Shown here: positions 8,055 through 57,595 of the stretch, one piece after another
How positions within the stretch are numbered: position 1 is the stretch's first letter
Layout of the letters: each line of letters starts with the position of its first letter
NCBI GenBank assembly: GCA_963757335.1
Contig: CAVWRJ010000013.1
Span: 471,803 to 535,802 of the forward strand
Length of the DNA: 64,000 nucleotides
Direction of reading: 5' to 3'
Origin: an uncultured Acidobacteriota bacterium
GTDB lineage: Bacteria > Acidobacteriota > Thermoanaerobaculia > Multivoradales > UBA5704
Notes under the pieces: model-generated
What the model saw: only the letters and a program-made list of their open reading frames with translations
What the model was told of the DNA's origin: nothing
The model's database searches: none
Program-made: the position numbers and the translations under genes

Positions 8055-9281
8055 ATGCTCAAGACGGAACTGCTGGAAATCCTGCGCAACGGGGAGAGCT
8101 CAGGGGTCGAGTTCAAGCTCGACACGATCGACAACCGCGTCTTGGCCAAGGAGTTGGTCGCCTTTGCCAACTTTCAAGGCGGCGCCGTGCTTCTCGGCGT
8201 GGCGGATGATGGGACGGTCCGCGGTATCGAGCGGTCGAGGCTCGAAGAGTGGGTGATGACCGCTTGCCGCGACAAGGTCAGGCCAGAGCTCATTCCTTAC
8301 TTCGAGGTTCTCAAGGACGTCGAGCCCGGCAAGGACGTGGCCGTGGTACGGGTGGACCGTGGCTGGTCCGTGCATCATGTCTGGCACGATCATCACCGAA
8401 CGTATTACATCCGGGTGGGCACCCGGAGCACCGAGGCCAGTCAGGAGGAGCTCGAAAGACTTTTCCAGCAACGCGGCGGCTTCCGGGTGGAGCTGCGCCC
8501 CGTCTCCGGCTCCGGCCTGGACGACCTCGACCGACGACGTCTACGCGATTACTTCGAGCGTGTCCGGCAGCAGAAGGCTGCTGAAGAGGATGAGGAGTGG
8601 CGAGAGCTGCTCTTGAATACCGAGTTGCTCAGTGACGAAGGTCCGAATCGACCCTGTACCGTAGCGGCTCTCCTACTCTTTGGAAAGAACCCGAACCGAT
8701 TTCTGCCCCAGGCAGGAATCGACGCGGTCGCCTATCCGGGCCGCGAGAAAGATTATGCCGCAAGGGAGCGGGCGAGCCTGCGCGGCCCCCTCACGCCTTT
8801 CTTCGATGCACGAGCCGAGCTCGTGGAGAACGGGGTCGTCGAGGAGGCCGTCGCCTTCGTGCGGCGCAACACAGGAGTGAGCGCACGGCTGGAGGCGGGA
8901 GCAAGGAGAGTCGAGGTTCGCGACTATCCGGAGGACGCGGTTCGCGAAACGATTGTGAATGCCCTTGTCCATCGCGACTACCTGCTCTCCGCCACGGACG
9001 TCGAGCTCTCGATCTATGAGGACCGTCTCGAGGTCATCTCCCCAGGCCAGCTCCCGAATGGCATCAACCCCGAGCGGATGCGGACGGGCTGCCGGGCTGC
9101 CCGCAATCAACTGCTCAAGGACGTGATGCGAGATTATGGCTACCTCGAGCACATGGGGATGGGAGTGCCGCGCAAGATCGTCAAGTCGATGCGGGAGCAC
9201 AACGGCACGGAGCCGGACCTCGTCGAGGACGGCGAACGCTTCCTCGTGCGGTTGTGGAAGACACTTCCCGTATCGCCCTGA
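8055..9281 (+). CDS. COG2865-type ATP-binding protein: Schlafen-like AlbA_2 domain + HATPase_c_4 domain (often annotated RecG-like / putative transcriptional regulator)
   Basis: Start moved to ATG 8055 (MLKTELLEILRNGESSGVEFK); AlbA_2 motifs (LAKELVAFANFQGGAVLLGVADDG) and C-terminal HATPase-like block (ETIVNALVHRDY...EVISPGQLP). Confidence 0.7.
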   Translation: MLKTELLEILRNGESSGVEFKLDTIDNRVLAKELVAFANFQGGAVLLGVADDGTVRGIERSRLEEWVMTACRDKVRPELIPYFEVLKDVEPGKDVAVVRVDRGWSVHHVWHDHHRTYYIRVGTRSTEASQEELERLFQQRGGFRVELRPVSGSGLDDLDRRRLRDYFERVRQQKAAEEDEEWRELLLNTELLSDEGPNRPCTVAALLLFGKNPNRFLPQAGIDAVAYPGREKDYAARERASLRGPLTPFFDARAELVENGVVEEAVAFVRRNTGVSARLEAGARRVEVRDYPEDAVRETIVNALVHRDYLLSATDVELSIYEDRLEVISPGQLPNGINPERMRTGCRAARNQLLKDVMRDYGYLEHMGMGVPRKIVKSMREHNGTEPDLVEDGERFLVRLWKTLPVSP

Positions 9282-9364: not shown

Positions 9365-11251
9365 TTACTGGCAGGTCGCGAACGTGCCGGTGTCGTTGAC
9401 CGAGGGCGCCGCCAGGCCGTAGGGGTTCGAGTAGGTCTTGACGAGACCGGTATGAGTGTCCGTCACCTCGACCGAGAAGCCGACGTTGGTCGTCGCGGCG
9501 TAGAAGACCCAGTAGCTGTTGAAGCCGCTGCAGGCGTCGAGCACCTTGACCAGCATCTCGGTGTTGTCGGCGCTGAAGAACCAGAAGGCGCCCGAGTTGG
9601 CGTTGAGCTTCGTCGTGTGGCCGGGGCCGGTCTGGCCGTCGCCGGTCCGCCAGGTGACCCGCACCCGGAAGCGGTCGCCCGCCGTGCAGAGAGTGGTGTC
9701 GTCGTCCGTGCAGGACGAGGTGTCGCCGTTCTTGTCGAGCAGGAAGAGGGTCGAGGTCTTGCCCTCGCCCAGGGTGGCACCGCTGGGGTTCTGAAGGGTC
9801 AGGCGGACAGTCCTGCCACTCCCCTTGGGGTTGGCGAAGGTGTGAACCTCGAAGGTCTTCGCGCCCTCCTGGTCGGGGCTCCAGGTCAGGGTACCGGTGG
9901 TCGCCGTATAGTCGGTCCCGGCGAGCCCGCTGCCGTCGCTCGTCGTGTACTGGACCGAAGCGGCGCCGGCGTGGCCCGCGCTGCGCTCGACCGTGATCGT
10001 CGCGGTGTCGCCCGCGACCACCTGGAACGAGTCGGCCTCGAACTTGATCGTGCCGGGGTTGCCGCCCGGGCCGCCCGGCGGGCCGGGGGGATGGTCCTCG
10101 TGGCCCGGGCCGCCGATCGAGAGGAGCGCCACCCTGTGCTCCTGGGCGATCGTGGCGCCGCCCTGCGGGTTGGCGACGAGGAGCTTGACGGTGCCCGCGC
10201 CGTTGGGGAGGAGGGGCACGAAGAAGGTCTTCGTGCTCTCGTCGCCGGCCGCCCAGCTGAGGATGCCGGAGGTAGGAGAGTAGTCCTTGCCCGCCAGCGC
10301 CGTGCCGTCGATCGTCGTGTAGCCGACCGCGACCGCTCCAGCCGCGCTGCCCGAGCGCTCGACCGTGATCACCGCCTCGCCGGCCGAGGAGACGGCGACA
10401 TAGTCGTTTTCGTCGAAGCCGAGAACGCCCGCCCCACCGCCGCCACCGTCCCCGCCACCGCTCCCGGCGGGAAGGACGAGGATCGCCGTACCGCGGGTGG
10501 CGAAGATGGTGGCGCCGCCGGTCGGGTTGGCGAGGGCGAGCTGGATGGTCCGGCCGCCGCTCGTGGGCGACGGGAGGAGAGTGACGTTGAAGGTCTTGGC
10601 CGCGACATCACCGTTGACCCAGGAGAGGGTTCCCGAGGTGGGGACGAAATCGACTCCCGCCACCGCCGTACCGGCGGTCGCGCTGTAGCCGACGGTCACC
10701 GCGCCCGTCCCGCCCTCCGTCCGCTCGACATTCACGGTGACCACCGTCGTGCCCGCCGGAATCGTGAAGCTCGGCTCGTCGAAGCGAAAAACGCCGGGAT
10801 GGCTGTCGCCACCGCCACCGCCGCCGCTCCCCCCGGGGAGGACGAGGGTCGCCGTACCGCGGGTGGCGAAGATCGTGGCGCCACCGGTCGGATCAAAGAG
10901 CGCGAGTTGGATGGTCTTGCCGGCGCTTCCGGAGGGCGGCAACAGGGTGACGTTGAAAGTCTGGGTCGCCTGGTCCCCGTTGGCCCAGGAGAGAATGCCG
11001 GACGTGGGGACGAAGTCGGTGCCCGCCACCGCCGTGCCGGCGGTCGCGCGGTAGCCGACCGAGACCGCGCCGGTGCCGCCGCTCGAACGCTCGACCCGGA
11101 CGGTCACGACCGTGGTGCCCGCCGGGATGGTGAAGCTCGGTTCGTCGAACCGGAAGACACCGGGGCCGCTGTCCGTCGCCTGGGCCCGGCCGGCGAACGC
11201 CGGCAGGAGCAGGAAGGTCGCCATCGCCAGGATGGCCTTCAGGGTTCTCAT
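9365..11251 (-). CDS. Secreted protein with four Calx-beta domains and a conserved ~105-aa Cys-containing C-terminal domain (shared with 21155..22264 and 39127..40041)
   Basis: AGGAGG RBS 7 nt upstream of ATG 11251; signal peptide; 4 repeats with Calx-beta signature (AVxVGYxTxDGTAxAGxDY...GxLxW); C-terminal FWFF...NTEMLVKVLDAC...TDTHTGLVKTY domain. Confidence 0.8.
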   Translation of the reverse strand: MRTLKAILAMATFLLLPAFAGRAQATDSGPGVFRFDEPSFTIPAGTTVVTVRVERSSGGTGAVSVGYRATAGTAVAGTDFVPTSGILSWANGDQATQTFNVTLLPPSGSAGKTIQLALFDPTGGATIFATRGTATLVLPGGSGGGGGGDSHPGVFRFDEPSFTIPAGTTVVTVNVERTEGGTGAVTVGYSATAGTAVAGVDFVPTSGTLSWVNGDVAAKTFNVTLLPSPTSGGRTIQLALANPTGGATIFATRGTAILVLPAGSGGGDGGGGGAGVLGFDENDYVAVSSAGEAVITVERSGSAAGAVAVGYTTIDGTALAGKDYSPTSGILSWAAGDESTKTFFVPLLPNGAGTVKLLVANPQGGATIAQEHRVALLSIGGPGHEDHPPGPPGGPGGNPGTIKFEADSFQVVAGDTATITVERSAGHAGAASVQYTTSDGSGLAGTDYTATTGTLTWSPDQEGAKTFEVHTFANPKGSGRTVRLTLQNPSGATLGEGKTSTLFLLDKNGDTSSCTDDDTTLCTAGDRFRVRVTWRTGDGQTGPGHTTKLNANSGAFWFFSADNTEMLVKVLDACSGFNSYWVFYAATTNVGFSVEVTDTHTGLVKTYSNPYGLAAPSVNDTGTFATCQ

Positions 11252-11336
11252 CGTAAGCCTCCTCTTAAAGAAAGTCGTCTGACTGAATTGGCGTCAGGAT
11301 AGAGGGGGCTGGATGAACGGAAGATGAAGACCGCGT

Positions 11337-29826: not shown

Positions 29827-30100
29827 ACGAAGCTCCTCGAAATGCACAGACAAAGAAGTCACAAATTTTAACACAACTCGCGCCGCGGGGCACCCCTTGA
29901 CCAGGATTTGGTACTGGGTCCGTGGGAATCCGAGGACGGGCGACTGGCTGCGCGGAGGGCCCGAAGGAGACCACCCGCAGGTTCAAAAGGACCCAGTACC
30001 CAGGACCCAGGTCGATTGGAGTCTCACCGGGGGGCGTGATACTTTGCCCGGTCTCGCGGGCCTTCGAACCCCGCTCCCCCTGGATGAAAAGGACGGTTTC

Positions 30101-31570
30101 ATGAGCACAGACATCAACGGCCCGATCCGGGTGCGCTTCGCGCCCTCCCCCACGGGGTTTCTCCACGTCGGCGGCGCGCGGACGGCGATCTACAACGATC
30201 TCCTCCGCCAGCACCTGGGCGGCGCCTTCATCCTGCGCATCGAGGACACCGACCGCGAGCGCTCGGACGAGGCGATGACCCGCCAGATCCAGTCGGCCCT
30301 CGCCTGGATCGGAGTCGAGTGGGACGAGGGGCCGTTCCTGCAGAGCGAGCGGCTGGCGCTCCACCGCGAACGCGCCCAGGAGCTGCTCGACAAGGGGCTC
30401 GCCTACCGCTGCTTCTGCACTCCCGAGGAGCTCGACGCCCAGCGCGCCGAGGCGCAGGCCCGGGGGGTCGCCTTCCGCTACCCCCGCACCTGCCTGAACC
30501 GCTCGGCGGAAGAGGTACAGGGGTTCCTCGCCCAGGGCAAACCGTTCGCCGTCCGCTTCCGCATGCCGGACGAGAACATCCGTTTCCACGACCTGGTGCG
30601 GGGCGACATGGACTTCCCGCCCGACGCCCTGGACGACTTCATCCTCCTGCGTTCGGACGGCTCGCCGACCTACCACATGTCGGTCTGCGTGGACGACATC
30701 GACATGCGGATCACCCACGTCATCCGCGGCGAGGACCATCTGTCGAACACCCCCAAGCACATCCCGCTCTTCCGCGCCCTGGGGGGCGAGGTACCGACCT
30801 TCGCCCATCTCCCCCTCATCCTGGGTCCGGACAAGAAGCGGCTCTCGAAGCGCACCGGGGCCACCTCGGTCGAGGAGTTCCGCGCCGAGGGGGTGCTGCC
30901 GCAGGCGCTCTACAACTTCATGGCCCTCCTGGGCTGGACCCCCGGGGACGACCGCGAGATCCTCTCCCGCCGAGAGATGGCGGAGATCTTCTCGGCCGAC
31001 CGCCTGAACGCCTCGGCGGCGGTCTTCGATCGCGAGAAGCTCCTCTGGATGAACGCGCAGTACCTCTCGCGCCTGGGAGTGGCGGAGATCCTCCCTCACC
31101 TCGCGCCCTTCCTCGCGCCCTTGGGGCTCACCGGCGCCGACCCGGCCCGCCTCGCCGCCGCCATCGAGCTCCAGCGGAGCCGCGCCCATACCTTGAAGGA
31201 GCTCGCCCAAGCCCTTCGCCCCTACTTCGAGGAGCGGCTCGACTACGACCCGGCGCTCGCCGCCAAGTTCTTGAAGGACCCCGCTCTCCCCGGCCACGTC
31301 GCGGCCCTGGCCGAGCGTTACGCCGCCCTCCCGGAGTTCGACAAGGGGGCGCTCGAAGCGGCTCTCCGCACTCTCGCCGAAGAGCGTGGATTGAAGGCCG
31401 GGGTGCTCATCCATCCTACCCGCATGGCCCTCTCCGGAGCCGCGGGAGGCCCGCCGCTCTTCGACCTGGTGGAGGTCATGGGCCGCGACGCGGCGGCAAG
31501 GCACCTGGGGAATTTCGTGGCCTTCCTGAAAGAGCCGCCGGTCGCTGCGGCGCCCACCGCCGAAGGATAA
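30101..31570 (+). CDS. gltX: Glutamate--tRNA ligase
   Basis: AAAAGGA RBS before ATG 30101; HIGH-type motif PSPTGFLHVGGARTA and KLSKR motif; full-length class I GluRS. Confidence 0.9.
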   Translation: MSTDINGPIRVRFAPSPTGFLHVGGARTAIYNDLLRQHLGGAFILRIEDTDRERSDEAMTRQIQSALAWIGVEWDEGPFLQSERLALHRERAQELLDKGLAYRCFCTPEELDAQRAEAQARGVAFRYPRTCLNRSAEEVQGFLAQGKPFAVRFRMPDENIRFHDLVRGDMDFPPDALDDFILLRSDGSPTYHMSVCVDDIDMRITHVIRGEDHLSNTPKHIPLFRALGGEVPTFAHLPLILGPDKKRLSKRTGATSVEEFRAEGVLPQALYNFMALLGWTPGDDREILSRREMAEIFSADRLNASAAVFDREKLLWMNAQYLSRLGVAEILPHLAPFLAPLGLTGADPARLAAAIELQRSRAHTLKELAQALRPYFEERLDYDPALAAKFLKDPALPGHVAALAERYAALPEFDKGALEAALRTLAEERGLKAGVLIHPTRMALSGAAGGPPLFDLVEVMGRDAAARHLGNFVAFLKEPPVAAAPTAEG

Positions 31571-31631: not shown

Positions 31632-31705
31632 TGGGAGATCGTCCAATGGTAGGACATGCGGCTCTGGACCGCAGAATCGGGGTTCGAGTCCCTGTCTCCC
31701 AGCCA
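31632..31705 (+). tRNA. tRNA-Gln (anticodon CTG)
   Basis: Hand-folded cloverleaf: 7-bp acceptor TGGGAGA/TCTCCCA, D-stem GTCC/GGAC, anticodon stem TGCGG/CCGCA with loop CTCTGGA (CUG), T-stem CGGGG/CCCTG, discriminator G + encoded CCA. Confidence 0.85.
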
Positions 31706-31747: not shown

Positions 31748-31945
31748 TTGCCTGGCGGAAGCCAGGCATCGTATAATCGCATTTTGCACTACAAAAGGAG
31801 AGCAATTGAAGAAGCCACTTAAAAAAAGCGGAAGCTGGTCCTGTCGAAGGAAACCGTGCAGGCGCTGGACCTCGGACTTGTGCAGGGCGGCGTCAAAACG
31901 GATTCTTGCTACCTGAGCGCGGCAAATTGCCCCATTTTTTGATGC
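31748..31945 (+). other. Promoter-like TTGCCT-N18-TATAAT + AAAAGGAGAG RBS + TTG-initiated 36-codon basic Cys peptide ORF (31806..31916) + T-run; candidate small gene or sRNA
   Basis: Read directly in an AT-richer gene-free stretch after tRNA-Gln; peptide LKKPLKKSGSWSCRRKPCRRWTSDLCRAASKRILAT; 8-bp hairpin with GGAA loop at 31749-31768; GGCA/TGCC stem + TTTTTT at 31920-31940. Confidence 0.25.
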
Positions 31946-32080
31946 CCGGCAGCGATTAGCTGCCGAGAGCCCTCCGGTCCCCTGAGACCGGAGGGCTGCC
32001 CAGCTCCTGAAGCTCTACGGTATCCCGCCCATCCGAGGAGAACCGACGAGCCCGAACGGGAGCAGAAACTTAAAAGCCGA

Positions 32081-32500
32081 GCCAAAACGCCCTAAGCTCC
32101 AGTAAATCCCCCCTTAACTCCAGTTAAGCTCCGAAAAACTCGAATTGCGCCTCCGTAAACTGAAATAGGAAGCCCCTAAACTGGAGTTGGACCGGCCTAA
32201 ACTGAAATACGGAGCGCCTAACCTCTCTTTGTACCGCCCTAAACTGAAATACGGAGCACCAAAACTCTCGTTGCTCCTGCCTAAACTGAATTGCGGAGCA
32301 CCCAAACTCAGTTATCGGCGTTTCGCGGGAGCTTAGGGAGGTTTCGGCCGAGCTCGGAGACCTTAAGGCGGAGGTTATCGAGGTCCGGAACTCGCTTGGA
32401 GACCCCCGTCGTCACGTTGGGGACGCCGCGGAGGCCCTCAGGGACCCTCCTGGCGCGGTTGGAGACGGTCCCGCCGGCTTTATCGGGCAGGAGCCTCAGG
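32081..32500. repeat. Degenerate tandem array with 21-bp period (~20 units); early units CCTAAACTGAAATACGGAGCN, later units with GGAGACC core
   Basis: Segmentation into 21-mers by eye keeps CCTAAACT / GGAGC(N) in register across ~420 bp; stops in most frames; lower GC than flanks. Confidence 0.6.
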
Positions 32501-32825
32501 TTCTAGGGTGCTTTGAGACCAGGAAGCGCCCGCGCGAGCGCCTCACCCAGGGCAGGCGCCTGTAGCCCCTCAGGGCCGTATGACTTCAACATGGGCAAGA
32601 GTCGGGCCGGGCGGCACTACCCGCCGATCGAGCGTCCAACGCGGCGCTGGTCGCCGCTCAAGTCGAGCCAATCCCCCGCCGTGGGAGCCCCTCCACAGGC
32701 GATGAGAGGGAGTCATGGCAGCGGCGCTTTGTGGTAGCCTCCGGCCTCTCGCCAACCTCGTAGTCGAGACGGACTCCCGTGAGACGGACTCCCCCTGGGA
32801 AGCCAGCGCCAGTGAGCATGAAACC

Positions 32826-35525
32826 ATGACCCCCGTCCTCGGCGGCCGGCGCGAGCTGCGGGCGAGCCTGCTCATCGGGCTCTGCTGTCTGCTGGTCTAC
32901 AACGCCAACGGGCGGGCGATCAGCCCCGGCGACGCCTTTCCGGCGCGCTACCTGCCGTTCGCGATCTGGCGGTACCACAGCCTCCTTCTCGATCCCATCG
33001 CGACGCTCGCCGCCCAGGGGCGAGCCGATCGGGCGTACTGGATGGTGCGGGTGCCCGGCGGCCACATCATCTCGCTGTACCCCGTGGTGCTGCCGGTGCT
33101 CGTCGCGCCGCTCTACCTCCCCGCGATCGGTTACCTGCAGCTGCGGGGTTGGACGGATGGGCGGCTGGACCACCTAGCGAGGGTCATGGAGAAGCTCTCC
33201 GCCTCGCTCGTGGCGGCGCTTTCCGCGTCGCTCCTCTACCTGCTGCTGCGGCGCCGGGCGGAGGCGCCGATCGCACTGCTCCTCACCCTGGCTTATGCCT
33301 TCGGCACCACCACCTGGGTGATCGGCAGCCAGGCTCTGTGGCAGCACGGGATGGCGGAGTTGCTGGTGATCGGCGCCCTGCTGCTCCTCACCGCGCCGTG
33401 CACCGCGCCGCGGGCTCTGGCGGCGGGGTTGCTGTGCGGGCTCATCGCCTGCAACCGCCCGCCGGATGCTGTTCTCGCGGCGGCGCTGGGCGCTTACGGA
33501 CTCTTCTGGGCCGGCCGCCGGGCGGCGCTGCTCGCCGCGGCGGCGGTGCTGCCGGCGGCCCTGGTGCTGCTCTACAACCTCGGCGTGGCCGACCACTTCG
33601 CCGGCGGTTACGGGCGGCTTGGCAGGGCCAGCTTCTTCCAGCACGACCTGCTTTCCGGCCTCGGCGGATTGCTGTTCAGCCCGACGCGGGGGCTGTTCGT
33701 CTTCTCACCCTTCCTGCTCTTCCTCGTCCTTTCCTTCCGGCACCTGCCGAGCGACCGTGGCGACCGTGGCGAGCGCGGTCTCAGCCTGGCGATCAGCGCC
33801 GGCGTCGCCCTCCAGCTCCTGCTCTACGCCTTGACCGACTGGCGGGCCGGCATCTCCTGGGGGCCGCGCTTCCTGACCGACCTCCTGCCGCTCCTCCTGT
33901 GGATGCTGGTGCCGGTGGTCGCCGCACTGCGCGGCTTCGGCCGGGTGTGCTTCCTGCTTGCGGTCGGCGCGGCGGTCGCCATCCAAGCCATCGGCGCCTT
34001 CTGGTACACCGGCGCGACCGACAGCGCGATTTTCGCCGTGGCCAGCGGGCCCCACCAGATGCGGGCCGCGTGGGACTGGCGAAACGCACCGTTCGTCGCT
34101 TCCTTGAAGCATGGCCTCGCGCCGGCGGAGCTCTCGACCGAGATGCGCGGCAATATCGACGCCATCGACGCGATCGACGCGATTGACGCCAGCGGCGCCG
34201 GCAGGCGCGCGACCTCCGCCGTCAACGCCGGCCAGGAGGTCGTCGCTGCCGGCTGGGCGCTGGCCGGCCACGCCACGCCCTGGCAGGTGGCCGTCGTCGT
34301 CGACGGCCGGCAGATCGTCACCTCCCGCACCTTCTTCGACCGGCCCGATGTCCGCGGTACGCTCCACGAGGCGAGCCCCGCCGGCTGGCGCATCCCGCTC
34401 GGCACGGCCGGCCTCGCTCCCGGCGAGCACTATCTGGCCGCCCACGCCTGGGCCTCCGAGAACGGCGAGGGGTATTACCTGGCGGATCGCAAGCTGACCG
34501 TGCGGCCGGCACCGGCGACAGGAGGAGCGGAGCGGGCCGCCGACGAGGACTGGAACGACGGCATCAAGACGGCAGCGGCGCGGCTTCGGGCGCACCAGCA
34601 GGGGCCGGGGTACTGGCTCACTGCCTACACGAGAGCGGCGCGCTTTGCGGAGCCGCACCAGGAGATGAACACCTTCCTCACCGCCTTGCTGCTCGACCTG
34701 CTCGATCCGCTGGCAGCCACCGGCGGTCTCGGCGACAGCTTGGAGCGCGCCCGCCAGCACCTCACCGGCCAGATCGAGGCCAGCGGGCTGGTGCGCTACC
34801 ACGGCCTCCCAGACGCTCCCGGCATCGGCACCCTGGGGTGCGCGATCACCCCGGATGCCGACGACACGGCGCTCGCCTGGCGGCTCGCTCCCGGCCACGA
34901 CCGCCGTCGGCGGTTGCCGGCCGCCCTGGCGGTCCTCGACCGATATCGCACCCGCGAGGGCCTCTACCGCACCTGGCTGGCGCCACGGGAGGCCTACCAG
35001 TGCATCGACCCGGGGAGCGATCCGGACCCTGCCGACATCGGCATCCAGATGCACGTGCTGCTGCTGCTGGCCAAGGTGGAGCCGCCGGCCGGCCGGGCGC
35101 TCTGCGCAGCTCTCCGCCCAGTGGTCGACGAGGATCGGGTCTGGGTCTACTATCGTAGGGCGCCGCTGGTCCCGCTCCTGCGCCTAAGCGACCTCGAGCG
35201 CGCCGGCTGCGCGCTCAAGCTGCCCGAGTCGCGGCTGCGGACGCCGGTGCCAGGCCAGGAGATCTGGGTGTCCCTCGTCCGGCTCCTGGGGCGTGCGCGG
35301 ACCCCCGGAGGCCCACCGCCCGACGCGGCAGAGCTCCAGGCGGTGCTGCGGCAGCTCGCCCGAGAGGACTTTGCCCTTCTGCGAAAGAATCCACCGCTCC
35401 TCTACCACAACGATCTCACCGCGACGACCCCGAGATACTACTGGTCGGAGGACGTCGGCTACGCGCTCTGGCTAAGGCTCGCTTACGAACATGCGCACCT
35501 CCGGCACCCCCATCCGAACGGCTAA
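32826..35525 (+). CDS. Large membrane protein: N-terminal GT-C-like (PMT_2/ArnT-like) multi-TM domain, beta-sandwich region, C-terminal alpha/alpha-toroid (six-hairpin / terpenoid-cyclase-like) domain
   Basis: Start moved to ATG 32826 (MTPVLGGRRELRASLLIGL...); ~11 TM helices in first 420 aa; C-terminal QQGPGYW (QxxxGxW-like) and DADDTA motifs; in-frame (IDA)4 9-bp microsatellite. Confidence 0.65.
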   Translation: MTPVLGGRRELRASLLIGLCCLLVYNANGRAISPGDAFPARYLPFAIWRYHSLLLDPIATLAAQGRADRAYWMVRVPGGHIISLYPVVLPVLVAPLYLPAIGYLQLRGWTDGRLDHLARVMEKLSASLVAALSASLLYLLLRRRAEAPIALLLTLAYAFGTTTWVIGSQALWQHGMAELLVIGALLLLTAPCTAPRALAAGLLCGLIACNRPPDAVLAAALGAYGLFWAGRRAALLAAAAVLPAALVLLYNLGVADHFAGGYGRLGRASFFQHDLLSGLGGLLFSPTRGLFVFSPFLLFLVLSFRHLPSDRGDRGERGLSLAISAGVALQLLLYALTDWRAGISWGPRFLTDLLPLLLWMLVPVVAALRGFGRVCFLLAVGAAVAIQAIGAFWYTGATDSAIFAVASGPHQMRAAWDWRNAPFVASLKHGLAPAELSTEMRGNIDAIDAIDAIDASGAGRRATSAVNAGQEVVAAGWALAGHATPWQVAVVVDGRQIVTSRTFFDRPDVRGTLHEASPAGWRIPLGTAGLAPGEHYLAAHAWASENGEGYYLADRKLTVRPAPATGGAERAADEDWNDGIKTAAARLRAHQQGPGYWLTAYTRAARFAEPHQEMNTFLTALLLDLLDPLAATGGLGDSLERARQHLTGQIEASGLVRYHGLPDAPGIGTLGCAITPDADDTALAWRLAPGHDRRRRLPAALAVLDRYRTREGLYRTWLAPREAYQCIDPGSDPDPADIGIQMHVLLLLAKVEPPAGRALCAALRPVVDEDRVWVYYRRAPLVPLLRLSDLERAGCALKLPESRLRTPVPGQEIWVSLVRLLGRARTPGGPPPDAAELQAVLRQLAREDFALLRKNPPLLYHNDLTATTPRYYWSEDVGYALWLRLAYEHAHLRHPHPNG

Positions 35526-38853: not shown

Positions 38854-39126
38854 GGGGTCTCCTTTTCAAGGTTGGGGGTGGGACGATCGACCGGCGTGAG
38901 GCTCCGGTGCAGGAGGCCGGTCGCGTTTCGATCTCCCAGCATACGGATCTCCTTTGTCGGTACTGGGTCATTTCGACCGAGGTCCTTGCCATCGGCAAGC
39001 GAACCAGAATCGCGCGCCGGGGGCGGGACTGTCAAGCGGGACGGATACCGGCCTTCTGAGCCGGCGCTTGGGGCAGTAGGGCCCGAAGCTTGCAGGGTGC
39101 CTCCTTACAACAGAGGAGGAACTCCC

Positions 39127-41486: not shown

Positions 41487-41573
41487 CGATCGACCTCCTG
41501 GTACAGCCCGACATCCTCTAAGTGGGTGCCTCGGGGGGGGCGGGAGGAGGACACTCTCATCGTCGCGACGCGG

Positions 41574-41888
41574 GTCGTCGGCGCCCGGGCGCGGGTCGTC
41601 CGCGCCCTGGCGCGAGTCGTCCGCGCCCTGGCGCGAGTCGTCCGCGCCCTGGCGCGAGTCGTCCGCGCTCTGGCGCAAGTCGTCCGCGCCCTGGCGCGAG
41701 TCGTCCGCGCCCTGGCGCGGGTCGTCCGCGCCCTGGTGCGAGTCGTCCGCTCCCTGGCGCGAGTCGTCCGCGCCCTGGCGCGAGTCGTCCGCGCCCTGGT
41801 GCGGGTCGTCCGCGCCCTGGCGCGAGTCGTCTGCGCCCTGGCGCGAGTCGTCCGCGCCCTGGTGCGGGTCGTCCGCGCCCTGGCGCCG
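41574..41888. repeat. Near-perfect 21-bp tandem repeat, ~15 copies, unit GTCGTCCGCGCCCTGGCGCGA
   Basis: Read directly; few point variants (GCGGG, CTGGT, GCTCT, TCTGC); each unit contains imperfect palindrome CGCGCC-CT-GGCGCG; open in frames of both strands (RPRPGAS / QGADDSR). Confidence 0.85.
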
Positions 41889-41935: not shown

Positions 41936-42220
41936 ATGAGCCCTATCCTGGAGAGATATCGAGAGGAGATCCTCACCGTAGCGACTCGCCACGGCGTCAA
42001 GAACGTACGCGTGTTCGGCTCTCTGGCTCGCGGGGAGGGTAGCGAGAGCAGTGACCTCGACTTACTCGTGACTCTCGGAGAAGGGCGTTCGCTTCTAGAT
42101 CTAATAGGTCTTAAGCAGGACGTGGAGGACATCCTGCATCGTCCGGTGGACGTGGTGACGGAGCTAGCCCTCTCTCCCTATCTGCGAGAGCGCGTCCTTG
42201 CCGAAGCCATTCCGCTATGA
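41936..42220 (+). CDS. mntA: MntA-type minimal nucleotidyltransferase antitoxin
   Basis: [18 protein letters not shown] NTase motif; ATGA overlap with hepT; start ATG 41936 (GTG 41933 possible), weak RBS. Confidence 0.7.
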
Positions 42221-42567
42221 GCCGAGACCAACTCTACCTTCGGCACGTGCTGGATGCGATTGTGAAGGTCGAGCGCTATGCTGCGGTGGGCCACCACGAG
42301 TTCATGGCCGCGTCCCACTGGCAAGATGCTGTGATCCGCCAGTTCGAGATTATCGGCGAAGCAGTGAAGCGACTCCCTTCTGAGGTTACCGAGCGCCGAC
42401 CTGACATCCCTTGGCGTCGCATCGCCGGTATGCGGGATGTCCTGATCCACAACTATATGGGCGTGGACCTGGAGGCGGTCTGGCAGGTTACGCAAGACGA
42501 GCTGCCCAACCTGAGACAGGCTATAGAGGAGCTCCTGGACAAGCAGGCGGGGGACCTGAGCCGGTAA
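42217..42567 (+). CDS. hepT: HepT-type (DUF86) HEPN toxin
   Basis: Rx4HxY motif (MRDVLIHNY); 116 aa; translationally coupled to mntA. Confidence 0.8.
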
Positions 42568-42643
42568 CGGCCCTTGTTGTACGACAAGTCTGTTGTACGA
42601 CAAGGTTGTCGTAAGGGTCAAGCTCTCTCCGGGCCTACTCACT

Positions 42644-54338: not shown

Positions 54339-54599
54339 CTTTTAGAGGGTAAAGCCAAACCCTCCCGGGGTAAGAGCTTGCCCTCGGAGGGTTGCCCTAC
54401 CCTTTCGGGGGCGAGGTCTCAGGACGCTCTCTGGACGATTTTGGCCTTCCAGGCTCTCCCGGAACCCCTCCGATCTCTCCACAAGCTCTCCACAGGCTTG
54501 GAAAAGTCGTGTGGAAGCCTGCCCAGGTCCTCGGAGTTCCGTCCACAGTCCTCGACGACGATCCCGAGAGCCTCCGAATTCGAACCGAAGCCCTTCCAA

Positions 54600-54860
54600 C
54601 CGCGCTCGACCCTCTCGGTCGGGAACTCGAGCCGGTGCGGCGGGATTTTATGCCGTCCGAATCGAACTCCGAGACGTCCTCGTTCAACTCCGAGAGCCTC
54701 GGGCAGATCTCCAAGGGCCGTGGGCGGAATTTCGAGACCTTCGGTCAGAACCCCGAGGGGTTTGGCGGGAACTCGCAAGGGGTCTGTTGGAACTCGGAGA
54801 GGTTTGGCAGCAACTCGGAAGGGTTCGGTTGGAATTTCGAGGGGTTCCCGAGACTCGTGG
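54600..54860. repeat. Degenerate tandem array with 21-bp period (~12 units), consensus approx GGAACTCGGAGRGGTTYGGYN; same family as 32081..32500
   Basis: Units read in register (ggaatttcgagaccttcggtc / agaaccccgaggggtttggcg / ggaactcgcaaggggtctgtt / ggaactcggagaggtttggca / gcaactcggaagggttcggtt / ggaatttcgaggggttcccga); region is lower GC and has no convincing ORF. Confidence 0.55.
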
Positions 54861-54927: not shown

Positions 54928-56000
54928 ATGGCCGCAGACGAGACCCTTCCCACGCCGGAGCGCCTGCTCGCCCTGATCGGTGGCATGGCGGGCCGGCCGG
55001 TCGTCCTCCTCGTCGACCTCGTGGCGGACCGGTTCGTGACCGGTATCCCGAAGCGGATCAGCCGCGAGGCGCCGGTCCTCATCCTCTCCTACCAGGGGGA
55101 GGTGCTGACCCCGGGCGGCGGGGCCAACGCGGTGGCGAACGTGGCGGCGCTCGGCGGCCGGCCCCTCCCCCTCGGGGTGGTAGGGGACGATCCGAGCGGC
55201 CGCGAGCTCGTCGCCGCTCTCGAAGCTCTCGGGGTCGAGACCGCCGGCATCCTCACCCGGCCGGGCTACCGCACTCCCACCAAGGTCCGCATCCTGGGCG
55301 GCGGTCGGCATTCGATCAAGCAGCAGATCGTGCGCTACGACATCGAGGATCACCTCACCCTGACCGAGGGCGAGCGCCAGCGTCTTCGCCGAGCGCCTCG
55401 CCGGCTGGGCCGGGCTCGCGCCGCGGGCCGCCATCCTCTCGGACTACGGCTACGGCGCCGTCGAGCCGGCCCTCCTCCCGGTCGTGCGGCGCCGCCCTCG
55501 GGCCGGCGGCGACCCTGGTCTGCGACAGCCGCTACCGGTTGGGCGAATTCGCCGGTCTGGACGGCGCCACCCCCAACGAGGAGGAGGCCGAGGCGCTCCT
55601 CGGGGGGGCCATCGAGGACGATCCCGGCCGGCTGGCGGCCGGGGGGAGGCGGCTCCTCGACCGGCTTGCCGCCCGCTTCCTCCTCATCACCCGGGGGAGC
55701 CGCGGGATGAGCCTGTTCACCTCCGGCGGTTCCGGGAGCCCTGGCGGAGCGGCGCACCTGCCGGTCCACGGCACCGACCAGGTGGCGGACGTCACCGGGG
55801 CGGGCGACACGGTGATCGGCACCTTCGCCCTCGCCCTGGCGGCGGGCGCCACGCCGCTCGAAGCCGCCCTCCTCGCCAACTACGCCGGCGGGGTGGTGGT
55901 GATGAAGATGGGGACCGCCACCCTCTCGCCCGAGGAGCTCGCGCGGGCCGTCCGGAGCGATCCCCGCCCCATCGAGGAGCTTCAATGGGCCAGGTCGTAA
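54928..56000 (+). pseudogene. hldA: D-glycero-beta-D-manno-heptose-7-phosphate kinase (HldA / RfaE domain I-like, PfkB family) disrupted by two +1 frameshifts (~55380 and ~55495)
   Basis: Homologous translation continues 54928-55380 in frame 1, 55382-55495 in frame 2 ([27 protein letters not shown]), then frame 0 to 56000 (...[11 protein letters not shown]...); ORF track shows the three pieces. Confidence 0.65.
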
Positions 56001-56504
56001 CCCTCCCCGAGCTGCGCGACAAGGTCGCCGCACGGAAGGCCGCCGGCCAGCGGATCGCCTTCGCCAACGGCCACTTCGACATCCTCCATGTCGGCCACCT
56101 GCGCTATCTCCAGGCGGCGAAGGCGGAGGGGGACGTCCTCGTCGTGGGGATCAACTCCGACACCTCCGGTGGAGCGCTTGAAGGGTCCCGACCGGCCGAT
56201 CGTGCCGGCGGTGGAGCGGGCCGAGCTCCTGGCCGCCCTCGTCCCGGTCGACTTCGTCGTAGTCTTCGAGGGCGACTCCCCGGCGTCCCTCCTGGCCGAC
56301 CTCCAGCCGGACGTCCACTGCAAGGGGACCGACTACGGCTCCCCCGAGCGGGTGCCCGAGTACGAGACCGTCCGCGGCTACGGCGGCAGGACCGCCCTGG
56401 TCGGCGACCCCAAGGATCACGCCACGAGCGACGTGATCGCCAAGATCCGGAGGAAGAGCGACCTCGTCGACAGCATTCGCAAGATGGAAGATCTCGCCGG
56501 ATGA
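55985..56504 (+). pseudogene. hldC: D-glycero-beta-D-manno-heptose-1-phosphate adenylyltransferase (HldC / RfaE domain II-like) disrupted by one +1 frameshift (~56166)
   Basis: [13 protein letters not shown]...[17 protein letters not shown]...VVGINSDTS in frame 2, then [35 protein letters not shown]... in frame 0 (extra G in tccgGtggag). Confidence 0.65.
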
Positions 56505-57595
56505 ACCGCCGGCCTCGGCCCTCGAAGATGAGCGAGCGCATCCTCCTCCTGCGCACCAGCGCCCTGGGGGACGTCGTCCACTGCCTGCCGGTGCTCTCGG
56601 CGCTCCGGCGCGCGCGGCCCGAGGCGCGGATCGGCTGGATGGTCGAGGAGGCCATCTCCCCCCTCCTCGCCGGTCACCCCGATCTCGACGAGATCCTCGT
56701 CGTCCGCCTCCGCCGCTGGCGCCGGCGGCCGTTCGCTCTCGAGACTCTCCGCGAGGTCGGCGCCTTCCTCGCCGCCCTCGACCGTTTCGCCCCCGACCTC
56801 GTGCTCGACCTCATGGGCAACCACAAGGCCGGGGTGCTCGCCGCCCTCAGCCTCTCCGACCGCCGGCTCGGCGCCGCCCGCCCCTTTAGGCGCGAGCCCT
56901 CCTCCGCCCTCTGGCTGAGCGAGGGGGTGGCGCTACGGGGGGTGCACGCCGTCGACCGCGCGCTCTCCCTCCTCGACGCCCTGGACATCCCGCCGGCAGC
57001 GGCCGACTTCGGCGGTGCCAAGCTCCTCCCCGAGGCGCCGGAGGCGATCCGCGCACGCCTCGCGGCCCACCCGGAGCCCTTCGTCCTCCTCCACCCCGGG
57101 GCGGGCTGGGGCAACAAGCGCTACCCGCCGGCCTGGTGGGGGGAGGCGGCCCGGCAGGTCCGAGCAACGACCGGCGTTCCCTTCTGGGTGGGGGTCGCTC
57201 CGGGCGAGGAAGCTCTCGCCGCCGAGGTGGTGGCGGCCGCGGCGGGAGCTGCCCGGGCCGTTCCCGCCCCCGATCTCGCCTCTCTCGCCGCCCTCTCCCG
57301 GGCGGCCCGGCTGGTGCTCGGCGGCGACTCCGGCCCCCTTCACCTCGCCCACGCCCTCGGCGCGCCGGTCCTCATGCTCATGGGCCCCACCGACCCGGAG
57401 AAAAACGGCCCCTACGGCGCCCCCGAGCGCGCCCTCTGGCAGCGCCTCCCCTGCAGCTTCTGCCACCGCCGGTTCGCCGAGACCAAGGCCTGTCTCCTGG
57501 AGATCCCCCCGGCCCGGGTGGCCGCGCGGGTGGCCGCTCTGGTCGGCGCGCAGGAAGGTAGACAGGAAAGTAGAGATATCACCCAAAACCCATAA
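56501..57595 (+). CDS. Glycosyltransferase family 9 (ADP-heptose:LPS heptosyltransferase-like)
   Basis: ATGA overlap with hldC stop; GT9 sequence ([22 protein letters not shown]...[29 protein letters not shown]); apparently intact. Confidence 0.75.

Follow-up and report, generated by a model that had tools for sequence, protein, structure and literature searches.

What kind of element is the tandem array that lies between a tRNA gene and a glycosyltransferase-like gene in the genome of an uncultured Acidobacteriota bacterium (GTDB lineage Thermoanaerobaculia; assembly GCA_963757335.1, contig CAVWRJ010000013.1, positions 471,803 to 535,802)? In this 64,000-nt stretch, hereafter called the window, an earlier note had described about 20 in-register 21-nt units at 32081–32500 (array 1). 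It had taken them for one of two sites at which a dispersed family of short extragenic repeats had expanded. It was found that the array and its register were real, and that arrays of the same period but of unrelated sequence were common in related genomes. On balance, we regard array 1 as a non-coding minisatellite, one of a set of satellite-like intergenic arrays typical of this lineage.

Periodicity and internal structure of array 1

The coordinates of array 1 proved to be right. About 20 units of 21 nt stood in register within 32081–32520, and the register survived objective analysis by Tandem Repeats Finder (TRF), autocorrelation and dinucleotide shuffles. When the sequence was laid out as 21-mers, the register was kept from ~32073 to ~32513. 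TRF called 32156–32309 with a period of 42 nt (3.7 copies, 81% matches, score of 182) and also with a period of 21 nt (score of 69), and a repeat search found four 84-nt copies in register from 32094 onwards, spaced 42 nt. The best four of 90 autocorrelation lags were exactly 42, 84, 21 and 63 nt, both in 32081–32310 and in 32311–32520. The mean autocorrelation at lags 21 and 42 was calculated to be 0.60 for the early part (z = 14.7) and 0.45 for the late part (z = 7.4), against a null of 0.26–0.28 ± 0.02 obtained from 500 dinucleotide shuffles.

Two sub-arrays could be distinguished, neither of which was assigned to a strand. The early sub-array (32094–32324) contained 5.5 super-units of 42 nt with a GC content of ~50%, in each of which a B-type 21-mer (AAACTCnnGTTGnnCCnSCCT) preceded an A-type 21-mer (AAACTGAAATACGGAGCnCCT). 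This alternation, which had been noticed before, was visible in the layout. The aligned super-units had a mean column identity of 79%, and their 42-nt profile matched its own copies at E values of 4e-10 to 8e-7. The late sub-array (32325–32513) contained ~9 degenerate 21-mers in the same register as the early part, with a GC content of ~65% and a mean column identity of 58%; a YTNGGRGAC core occupied the fixed offset 8–16 of these units. Because the A-type early unit carried GGAG at nearly the offset of the late-unit core, the two parts were regarded as one array with decay and a GC gradient from 49% to 65%. A two-armed inverted structure was considered for array 1 and rejected, since early and late units shared the GGAG core in one register. 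The sole inverted pair near the ends of the array, 28 nt with 75% complementarity, joined an early unit to a late one and was not terminal.

Head-to-tail units of 10–100 bp that can be detected objectively are characteristic of minisatellite or variable-number tandem repeat (VNTR) loci, and array 1 was of this build. Its units abutted without the unique spacers of a clustered regularly interspaced short palindromic repeat (CRISPR) array, and the seemingly variable halves of the units were degenerate copies of one another.

The suggestion that the array is non-coding was confirmed. The early part had stop codons in all six frames and showed no codon periodicity; the column entropy of the late part by codon phase was 1.19, 1.23 and 1.18, again with no 3-nt periodicity. 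The GC content of array 1 fell to 49–54%, compared with ~70% for the genome and a third-position GC content (GC3) of ~0.9 for its genes. Gene calling left the orthologous array of the nearest relative (locus L001) without a gene, and likewise the array that occupies this position in locus L002.

Divergence and turnover between close relatives

Compared with the nearest relative, array 1 was 95.2% identical in its early part and 92.4% identical in its late part. The flanking genes were ~95% identical, with 91–93% identity at third codon positions. The only large difference was one gap of exactly 42 nt, corresponding to two units, so the change of copy number by whole units that marks VNTR loci between close relatives was also observed here. 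Array 1 diverged at a neutral-like substitution rate and gained or lost whole units.

A second locus showed replacement of the sequence. The spacer between a DUF1579-like gene and an hldE-like gene contains array 2 of the window (54448–54860), which could not be aligned with what the nearest relative has there. This relative carried ~13 hairpin units in the same spacer (L211 10787–11059; L212 2980–3250), compared with three in the window. Both alleles were 21-periodic over their full length, and one array had been replaced by another between flanks that were highly similar (protein 99% identical, flanking genes 95–99%). In L211, a 252-aa open reading frame (ORF) was called over the hairpin units; it matched no family and was probably a false gene call.

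A lineage-wide class of arrays with a common period

A first periodicity scan covered the window and 83 related loci centred on the 899-aa gene downstream of array 1 (1.6 Mb together). In the related loci ~30 more arrays were found, with a different sequence in each. After five loci of the DUF1579/hldE region had been added (1.64 Mb), the dominant lag was 20–22, 41–43 or 62–64 nt in 36 of the 81 periodic segments. The TRF periods of the longer arrays were 20, 21, 41–44, 63 and 84 nt. Nearly all of the arrays were intergenic, with lengths of 150–700 bp and a lower GC content than the surrounding DNA; examples of their units were GGCTCAGAGGCTGGATCGTTC in L010, TGACTTCTTCGAGCGTCCGCC in L020 and GGGTCGCATCACAGGACCCTC in L002. 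An unrelated control set, 0.83 Mb of metagenome and viral contigs, contained only ~4 independent arrays of such kind, all of them short and one of them iteron-like.

The arrays shared their period and little else. The four arrays of the window had mutually unrelated units. Across arrays, the similarity of unit profiles was 7.69, against a null of 7.76; common descent of the arrays was considered as well, and circular profile–profile comparison gave no signal for it. About half of the arrays had palindromic (dyad-symmetric) units, such as the 41–42-nt units with 17–19-nt palindromes in L022, L029 and L073, whereas array 1 had none. The arrays occurred upstream as well as downstream of genes, and also between convergent ones. 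In at least six lineages the 899-aa gene had an array upstream, with differing units, and in L003 and L013 the gap between the tRNA and the downstream gene was only 91 bp, representing an empty site. Assembly artefacts can be dismissed, because the arrays have degenerate units and mid-contig positions, and because they were found again in independent assemblies (window, L001, L006) as well as in multi-megabase contigs such as L002.

No recurrent gene family was found beside the arrays when 77 neighbouring ORFs were compared with Pfam; there were scattered toxin–antitoxin (TA) modules, a methylase and one IS200-like transposase. Nevertheless, TA cassettes stood directly beside or close to 21-nt arrays strikingly often, in several genomes. 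A VapC-like insertion in L001 (8950–9800) started exactly at the end of array 1, and other cassettes near arrays were MntA/HepT at 41936–42600 of the window, FitA/PIN in L020 (14855–15705), HigBA in L030 (14873–15639) and MazE in L017 (4367–4825). The arrays may mark insertion hot spots.

Multiples of 21 nt (42, 63 and 84) were common, whereas periods of 10–11, 31–32 and 52–53 nt, which correspond to one, three and five helical turns, were absent. An inherited 21-nt unit thus fits better than a rule of whole helical turns.

Origin of the arrays and competing explanations

From these observations we infer a mechanism of slippage and re-amplification, with a period that was inherited rather than selected. 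A 21-nt base unit would be inherited, and slipped-strand mispairing or unequal exchange would add or remove whole units. Now and then, one variant or a block of two to four units would be amplified anew; because of this, the period could persist while the sequence was replaced. The arrays would then keep 21 nt or its multiples (42, 63 and 84, with occasional one-base shifts) as their period while the unit sequence drifted until they were unrelated. Array 1 needs no sequence-specific function to be explained, and nothing shows that it has one. If there is a function, a phased scaffold for a protein would be the most likely.

Part of what has to be weighed here concerns the trinucleotide GGA. 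In an unbiased test, GGA/TCC was the most over-represented trinucleotide across the unrelated arrays, followed by GAA and GGGA. Of 19 arrays, 14 had one strand with 0.7 or more GGA per 21 nt, compared with 6.5 ± 1.7 after column shuffling, and none of 200 shuffles reached the observed number. In array 1 itself, 18 GGA were counted on the plus strand, 11 of them in phases 10–12 of the 21-nt unit, and 9 on the minus strand. The GGA columns were not significantly better conserved than the others (p = 0.08), and 3 of 18 array consensus units (w1l, L005 and L030) had no GGA/TCC.

Several points weigh against the neutral minisatellite. A neutral process gives no reason for a base unit of 21 nt in particular, and the over-representation of GGA/TCC together with the in-phase GGA of array 1 hints at a shared constraint or binding partner. 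The recurrence of arrays upstream of one gene in several lineages could reflect function rather than ancestry. No intermediate similarity was found among the arrays at the position of the 899-aa gene, which leaves common descent unsupported. In addition, the number of arrays per genome is an extrapolation from 64 kb and from loci centred on one gene.

The alternative that survives best, although we consider it unlikely, is that the arrays are phased DNA scaffolds. A period of 21 bp is about two helical turns and would place a short core on one face of the helix, where a nucleoid-associated protein or a protein of the iteron or centromere type could bind cooperatively; intrinsic curvature would be another possibility, one that a curvature model would predict for any repeat with a period of nearly two helical turns. 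Such a scaffold could organise or insulate the variable spacers, or attract insertions, and the TA cassettes inserted directly beside arrays in several genomes are consistent with this. So are the conservation of the period without that of the sequence, the dyad-symmetric units in about half of the arrays, and the division of many arrays into a conserved block of ~11–13 bp and a variable block. The modal period of 20–22 bp is also the spacing of plasmid and phage iterons, an example of which was found among the viral control contigs: an AT-rich contig carried an iteron-like array of the classic type, 4 × 22 bp of TCTGnnATTGCAATGAAAATTT (control loci L185 6945–7175, L196 5013–5250 and L208 7911–8155), which contrasts with the acidobacterial arrays in size and regularity. 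However, each array would need its own binding protein, or one that does not read the sequence. No gene family recurred in the neighbourhood, and no rep, par or RHH gene was consistently adjacent. The variety of gene contexts, the absence of one- and three-turn periods and the neutral-like divergence of array 1 all argue against a scaffold, as does the number of units (15–25), which is far above that of known iteron and centromere arrays.

An RNA role appears improbable. Both genes flanking array 1 are read in the sense of the plus strand, and this strand contains ~18 GGA, most of them at distances of 21 or 42 nt. Its transcript would offer many binding sites to a protein of the CsrA/RsmA type and would act as a sponge or else as an extended regulatory leader for the glycosyltransferase-like gene. 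Sites at a distance of 10–63 nt can be bridged by a CsrA dimer, with ~18 nt as the optimum. The strand bias and phasing of GGA in array 1 and its enrichment across arrays agree with this idea, and the sense strand was the richer in GGA in five of six arrays upstream of the 899-aa gene. Against it, Rfam detected only tRNAs in the window, in the array region at E values up to 10 and in seven related loci. No promoter or terminator bounding array 1 was found in a scan that covered sigma-70-type sites only. The folding of arrays 1 and 2 was unremarkable (z = –1.0 and –1.6, respectively). For array 1, the former value was obtained against dinucleotide shuffles and indicated no excess structure that would present GGA in loops; against column shuffles, z was –1.06 for the early part and +0.67 for the late part, and the units were not palindromic. 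The lack of preferential conservation of GGA columns and the consensus units without GGA/TCC speak against an RNA role too, and the array of L002 had only ~0.5 GGA per unit. Elsewhere the orientation of arrays to neighbouring genes was inconsistent, and tens to hundreds of sponge RNAs per genome would be implausible. A tblastn search with Escherichia coli CsrA found no match in the fetched loci, a sample that is uninformative on csrA. What favours the scaffold and the CsrA-type RNA amounts to hints.

The explanation put forward in the earlier note has become very doubtful. It held that one short, genome-specific extragenic repeat, similar to repetitive extragenic palindromes (REPs) or miniature inverted-repeat transposable elements (MITEs), was dispersed as single copies and had expanded in tandem at two loci. 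It was right that array 1 does not stand alone: the window holds four intergenic 21-nt arrays, and the second array it had pointed out exists (TRF periods of 42 and 21 nt; autocorrelation z = 13.8 for 54601–54860 and z = 5.6 for 54448–54600). The close resemblance of the two arrays was not borne out. Smith–Waterman scores between them were 13 (forward) and 12 (reverse), compared with 11.7 ± 1.4 and a maximum of 18 for shuffles. Their unit profiles, compared circularly and on both strands, were no more similar than column-shuffled profiles. The late-unit profile had no match in 54448–54860, but it is too weak to be useful, finding its own members only at E = 1–8. Apart from short common strings seen by eye, for example GGAACTCGC, the sole support for a likeness was one match of the array-2 weight matrix inside array 1 (13.2 bits at 32338), which was one of only two matches of at least 13 bits outside array 2 in the 64 kb.

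Nor could the dispersed single copies be recovered. With up to two mismatches, GGAAYYCGAGGWC matched 39 times, compared with 21 ± 4.6 expected, and the matches were scattered in coding DNA. Copies had been reported near 29915 and 38985; one exact match was present at 29925 and none near 38985, and a shorter core occurred at chance level (14 versus 12). The 42-nt early-unit profile found only its own five copies in the window, the next best match having E = 2. In 1.33 Mb of related loci, it found only the orthologous array of the nearest relative; this set included ~43 kb of that relative's contig (L001 and L211), 20 kb of it additional. A metagenome scan with TAAACTGAAWTRSGRAGC returned at least 120 single chance matches, the pattern being too degenerate to be informative on dispersal, and 7 further single chance matches were found in viral contigs; these loci served again as the control for periodicity.

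The structure of array 1 argues in the same direction: its units were not palindromic, its ends had no terminal inverted repeats, and no RAYT/IS200-like gene was present in the window. In favour of the earlier explanation, MITEs that contain minisatellites are known, such as BrickBuilt (PMC4596501), and in a distant relative (L045 9960–11008) a 20-nt array of 10.8 copies with 94% identity was flanked by REP-like hairpins (CCCCCGGTCTCACGACCGGGGG) and by an IS200/RAYT-like Y1 transposase gene. No other array of the class had a candidate for a mobilising enzyme beside it, and a tblastn search with the Y1 transposase found no match in the window or in the other loci. With no significant similarity between arrays 1 and 2 and no dispersed copies found, a REP- or MITE-like family was largely refuted within the available sequence.

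The least probable explanation, to which we give hardly any credit, is a coding array or the decayed remnant of a heptad-repeat protein gene (7 aa = 21 nt): the period of array 1 is a multiple of three, most 21-nt arrays have at least one open frame and the 252-aa ORF of L211 was called over one of them, but against this stand the stops in the early part of array 1, its flat column variability, a base composition far from that of the genes of the genome, the missing gene calls in L001 and L002, the AT-rich codons of the L211 ORF and its lack of a Pfam or NCBIfam match, and the periods of 20, 22, 41 and 43 nt in the class, which are not multiples of three and therefore rule out coding as a general explanation.

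Comparison with known repeat systems

The closest known kind of element is the generic bacterial minisatellite or VNTR locus, for example the mycobacterial interspersed repetitive units (MIRU). Array 1 resembles such loci in its head-to-tail, non-coding, intergenic arrangement, its degenerate units and its whole-unit changes. Divergent tandem repeats are known to be enriched in the intergenic space of prokaryotes (PMC12418385). The arrays described here differ from ordinary minisatellites in that one base period of 21 nt and its multiples extends over unrelated sequences throughout a lineage, and in that they are long (15–25 units) and frequent (four in 64 kb; ~30 in 1.6 Mb of related loci). 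In the literature searched, we found no description of 21-nt arrays in Acidobacteria or of a fixed period of ~21 nt across a lineage. Neither the TAACTGA heptamer repeats (PMC4679880) nor the intrastrand triplex motifs (PMC4666352) that turned up there are arrays of this type.

A parallel exists with eukaryotic satellite DNA as described by the library model, in which the period is kept while the sequence is turned over. Higher-order units (here of 42, 63 and 84 nt) and the differential amplification of variants in close relatives are common to both. The differences are that the present arrays are only 0.15–0.7 kb long, lie in a bacterial chromosome and have no known centromere or chromatin role.

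Iterons and plasmid centromeres are a second point of comparison. Examples are the 22-bp iterons, the 12 × 43 bp of sopC on F and the 20-bp repeats of parC on pSK41. Like these, the arrays are made of direct repeats with a spacing close to two (or four) helical turns; each array has its own sequence, and its units have a conserved core and a variable spacer. The spacing of 17–22 bp typical of iteron repeats was found in array 1 (periods of 21 and 42 nt), and no initiator (Rep) or partition gene adjoined it; the genes around it were gltX, tRNA-Gln, a small peptide gene, the glycosyltransferase-like gene and a UbiA gene. Unlike iterons, with 3–12 units, the arrays have 15–25 units, and they are chromosomal, numerous and found in every gene context without an adjacent rep or par gene.

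The sponge RNAs CsrB and RsmZ likewise carry many GGA at spacings that a CsrA dimer could bridge. Array 1 differs from them in having no Rfam match, no presentation in hairpins, no promoter or terminator and no preferential conservation of GGA.

REPs and bacterial interspersed mosaic elements (BIMEs), which are mobilised by RAYT, are extragenic and clustered as the arrays are, and palindromic units were seen in L022, L029 and L073 and in the mini-array at 54343–54415 of the window. One distant relative has an IS200/RAYT-like gene beside an array. The imperfect-palindrome stem-loop unit of REPs is not found in array 1, whose units are not palindromic and had no dispersed copies in the window or in the 1.33 Mb of related loci, and no RAYT gene was found in the window.

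BrickBuilt of Porphyromonas gingivalis is a MITE in which a 23-nt minisatellite lies between leader and tail subunits (PMC4596501). It and the pneumococcal BOX element are similar to the arrays in being intergenic, lineage-specific and made of spacerless units of ~21–23 nt. However, each of them is a single family of many copies with a conserved leader and tail and inverted-repeat ends, while here every array has its own unit. Within the available sequence, array 1 had no leader or tail with terminal inverted repeats and did not recur as an element at several loci, and no flanks common to arrays 1 and 2 were found.

Neighbourhood of array 1

The spacer around array 1 measures ~1.1 kb. Along the sequence, gltX (ending at 31570) is followed by tRNA-Gln, the spacer and the 899-aa gene (starting at 32826). 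The tRNA-Gln (CTG) at 31632–31705 on the plus strand was identified by ARAGORN and by the Rfam tRNA model (60 bits) and bounds the variable spacer on the left. After it, a promoter, a small peptide gene, a hairpin and array 1 follow in this order. The sigma-70-like promoter (31748–31777, plus strand) consists of TTGCCT, an 18-nt spacer and TATAAT; it was the one site found in the promoter scan of the region, where 0.1 was expected, and it belongs to the small peptide gene and lies outside the array.

The small peptide gene (31807–31942, plus strand) was taken from the ORF list and encodes a leader ending in GG and a Cys-containing core; a perfect 12-bp hairpin follows at 31968–31997. In the window, the gene lacks one base of an A-run and is frameshifted, which reflects either a true frameshift or an assembly error. 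In L001, an intact gene of 56 aa was called at 8238–8408. Its product reads VKKPLKKKQKLVLSKETVQALELGLVQGG followed by VNTDSCYLSAATCPIF, and from its sequence it looks like a bacteriocin- or RiPP-like peptide with a double-glycine leader and a Cys-containing core (RiPP, ribosomally synthesised and post-translationally modified peptide).

The 899-aa gene (32826–35525, plus strand), which served as the anchor for the comparative loci, encodes a putative membrane glycosyltransferase. In NCBIfam the protein weakly matched the LA_3751/LA_3752 glycosyltransferase family (E = 9e-12), and Pfam gave no match. It had 1414 homologues, named Thermoanaerobaculia, all from uncultured organisms; they assign the window to this class of the Acidobacteriota.

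Two further repeats were seen on the other side of gltX. In the divergent spacer upstream of that gene, the 7-nt repeat AGGACCC occurred 3.4 times at 29988–30011; AGGACCC also forms the conserved core of the units in the 21-nt array of L002 (CACAGGACCC). At 10441–11164, a segment of 366 bp is duplicated in tandem (2.0 copies, 79% identity) inside a long minus-strand ORF (9365–11293) that has further short repeats.

The other 21-nt arrays of the window

Array 3 (41569–41886, no strand assigned) is a young array with 15 units of CGCGAGTCGTCCGCGCCCTGG at 92% identity, a TRF score of 538 and a 63-nt higher-order pattern. It lies between a minus-strand S8 subtilase gene and the MntA antitoxin gene of the MntA/HepT pair. 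A coding reading of array 3 was rejected, as the array lies upstream of the signal-peptide start of the minus-strand subtilase. Array 3 was present in L006 (8765–9041) and absent in L001. It was observed that L006 has the subtilase and the counterpart of array 3 without the TA pair, and that L001 lacks the whole 2.5 kb.

The remaining arrays lie in the DUF1579/hldE spacer. Directly after the stop codon of the DUF1579-like gene, a mini-array (54343–54415, no strand assigned) contains three hairpin-type 21-nt units, each with GAGGG, 10 variable bases and CCCTC; its folding gave z = –6.2 against column shuffles. The left arm of array 2 (54448–54593) has units that are read on the minus strand, with the weaker autocorrelation given above. 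Its weight-matrix matches at 54448, 54531, 54552 and 54573 stood in one register, with 10.2, 14.6, 7.6 and 20.4 bits, respectively. The right arm (54610–54860, plus strand) contains 12 units with the consensus GgGGTTCGGgcGGAACTCCGA and has weight-matrix matches every 21 nt; both TRF periods and the higher z value of array 2 belong to it. It lies upstream of the hldE-like gene, which starts at 54928. A two-armed inverted structure was seen only in array 2 and at one end of the L002 array and is not general.

The hldE-like region itself (54928–57595), which encodes a PfkB kinase, a cytidylyltransferase and a heptosyltransferase, is split across frames in the window. In the nearest relative (L211 11436–14135) it reads as three intact genes. 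This suggests indel errors or pseudogenisation in the window.

Significance of the arrays

Taken alone, array 1 is an ordinary bacterial minisatellite. It is the class that is less ordinary, in that one unit length is shared by unrelated sequences in an abundant uncultured soil lineage and the arrays are turned over between genomes whose genes are 95–99% identical. A bolder possibility, to which we assign a low probability, is that Thermoanaerobaculia possess a satellite-like system that has not been described. It would comprise tens to hundreds of intergenic arrays in which ~21 bp (two helical turns) and its multiples are held, the sequence is free and a GGA/GGGAA core is enriched. Such arrays would serve as phased scaffolds for a nucleoid or RNA-binding protein, or as recombination-prone landing zones for TA cassettes and accessory genes.

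In practice, arrays of this class cause false gene calls, the L211 ORF being an example. They also mark hyper-variable spacers where accessory cassettes insert, and they could be used as strain markers for the lineage in metagenomes. If the period is selected, it would point to a protein, or to a constraint of DNA structure, by which the intergenic DNA of bacteria is shaped. If the period is instead inherited, the arrays would be a clean bacterial example of the 'library' evolution of satellite DNA.

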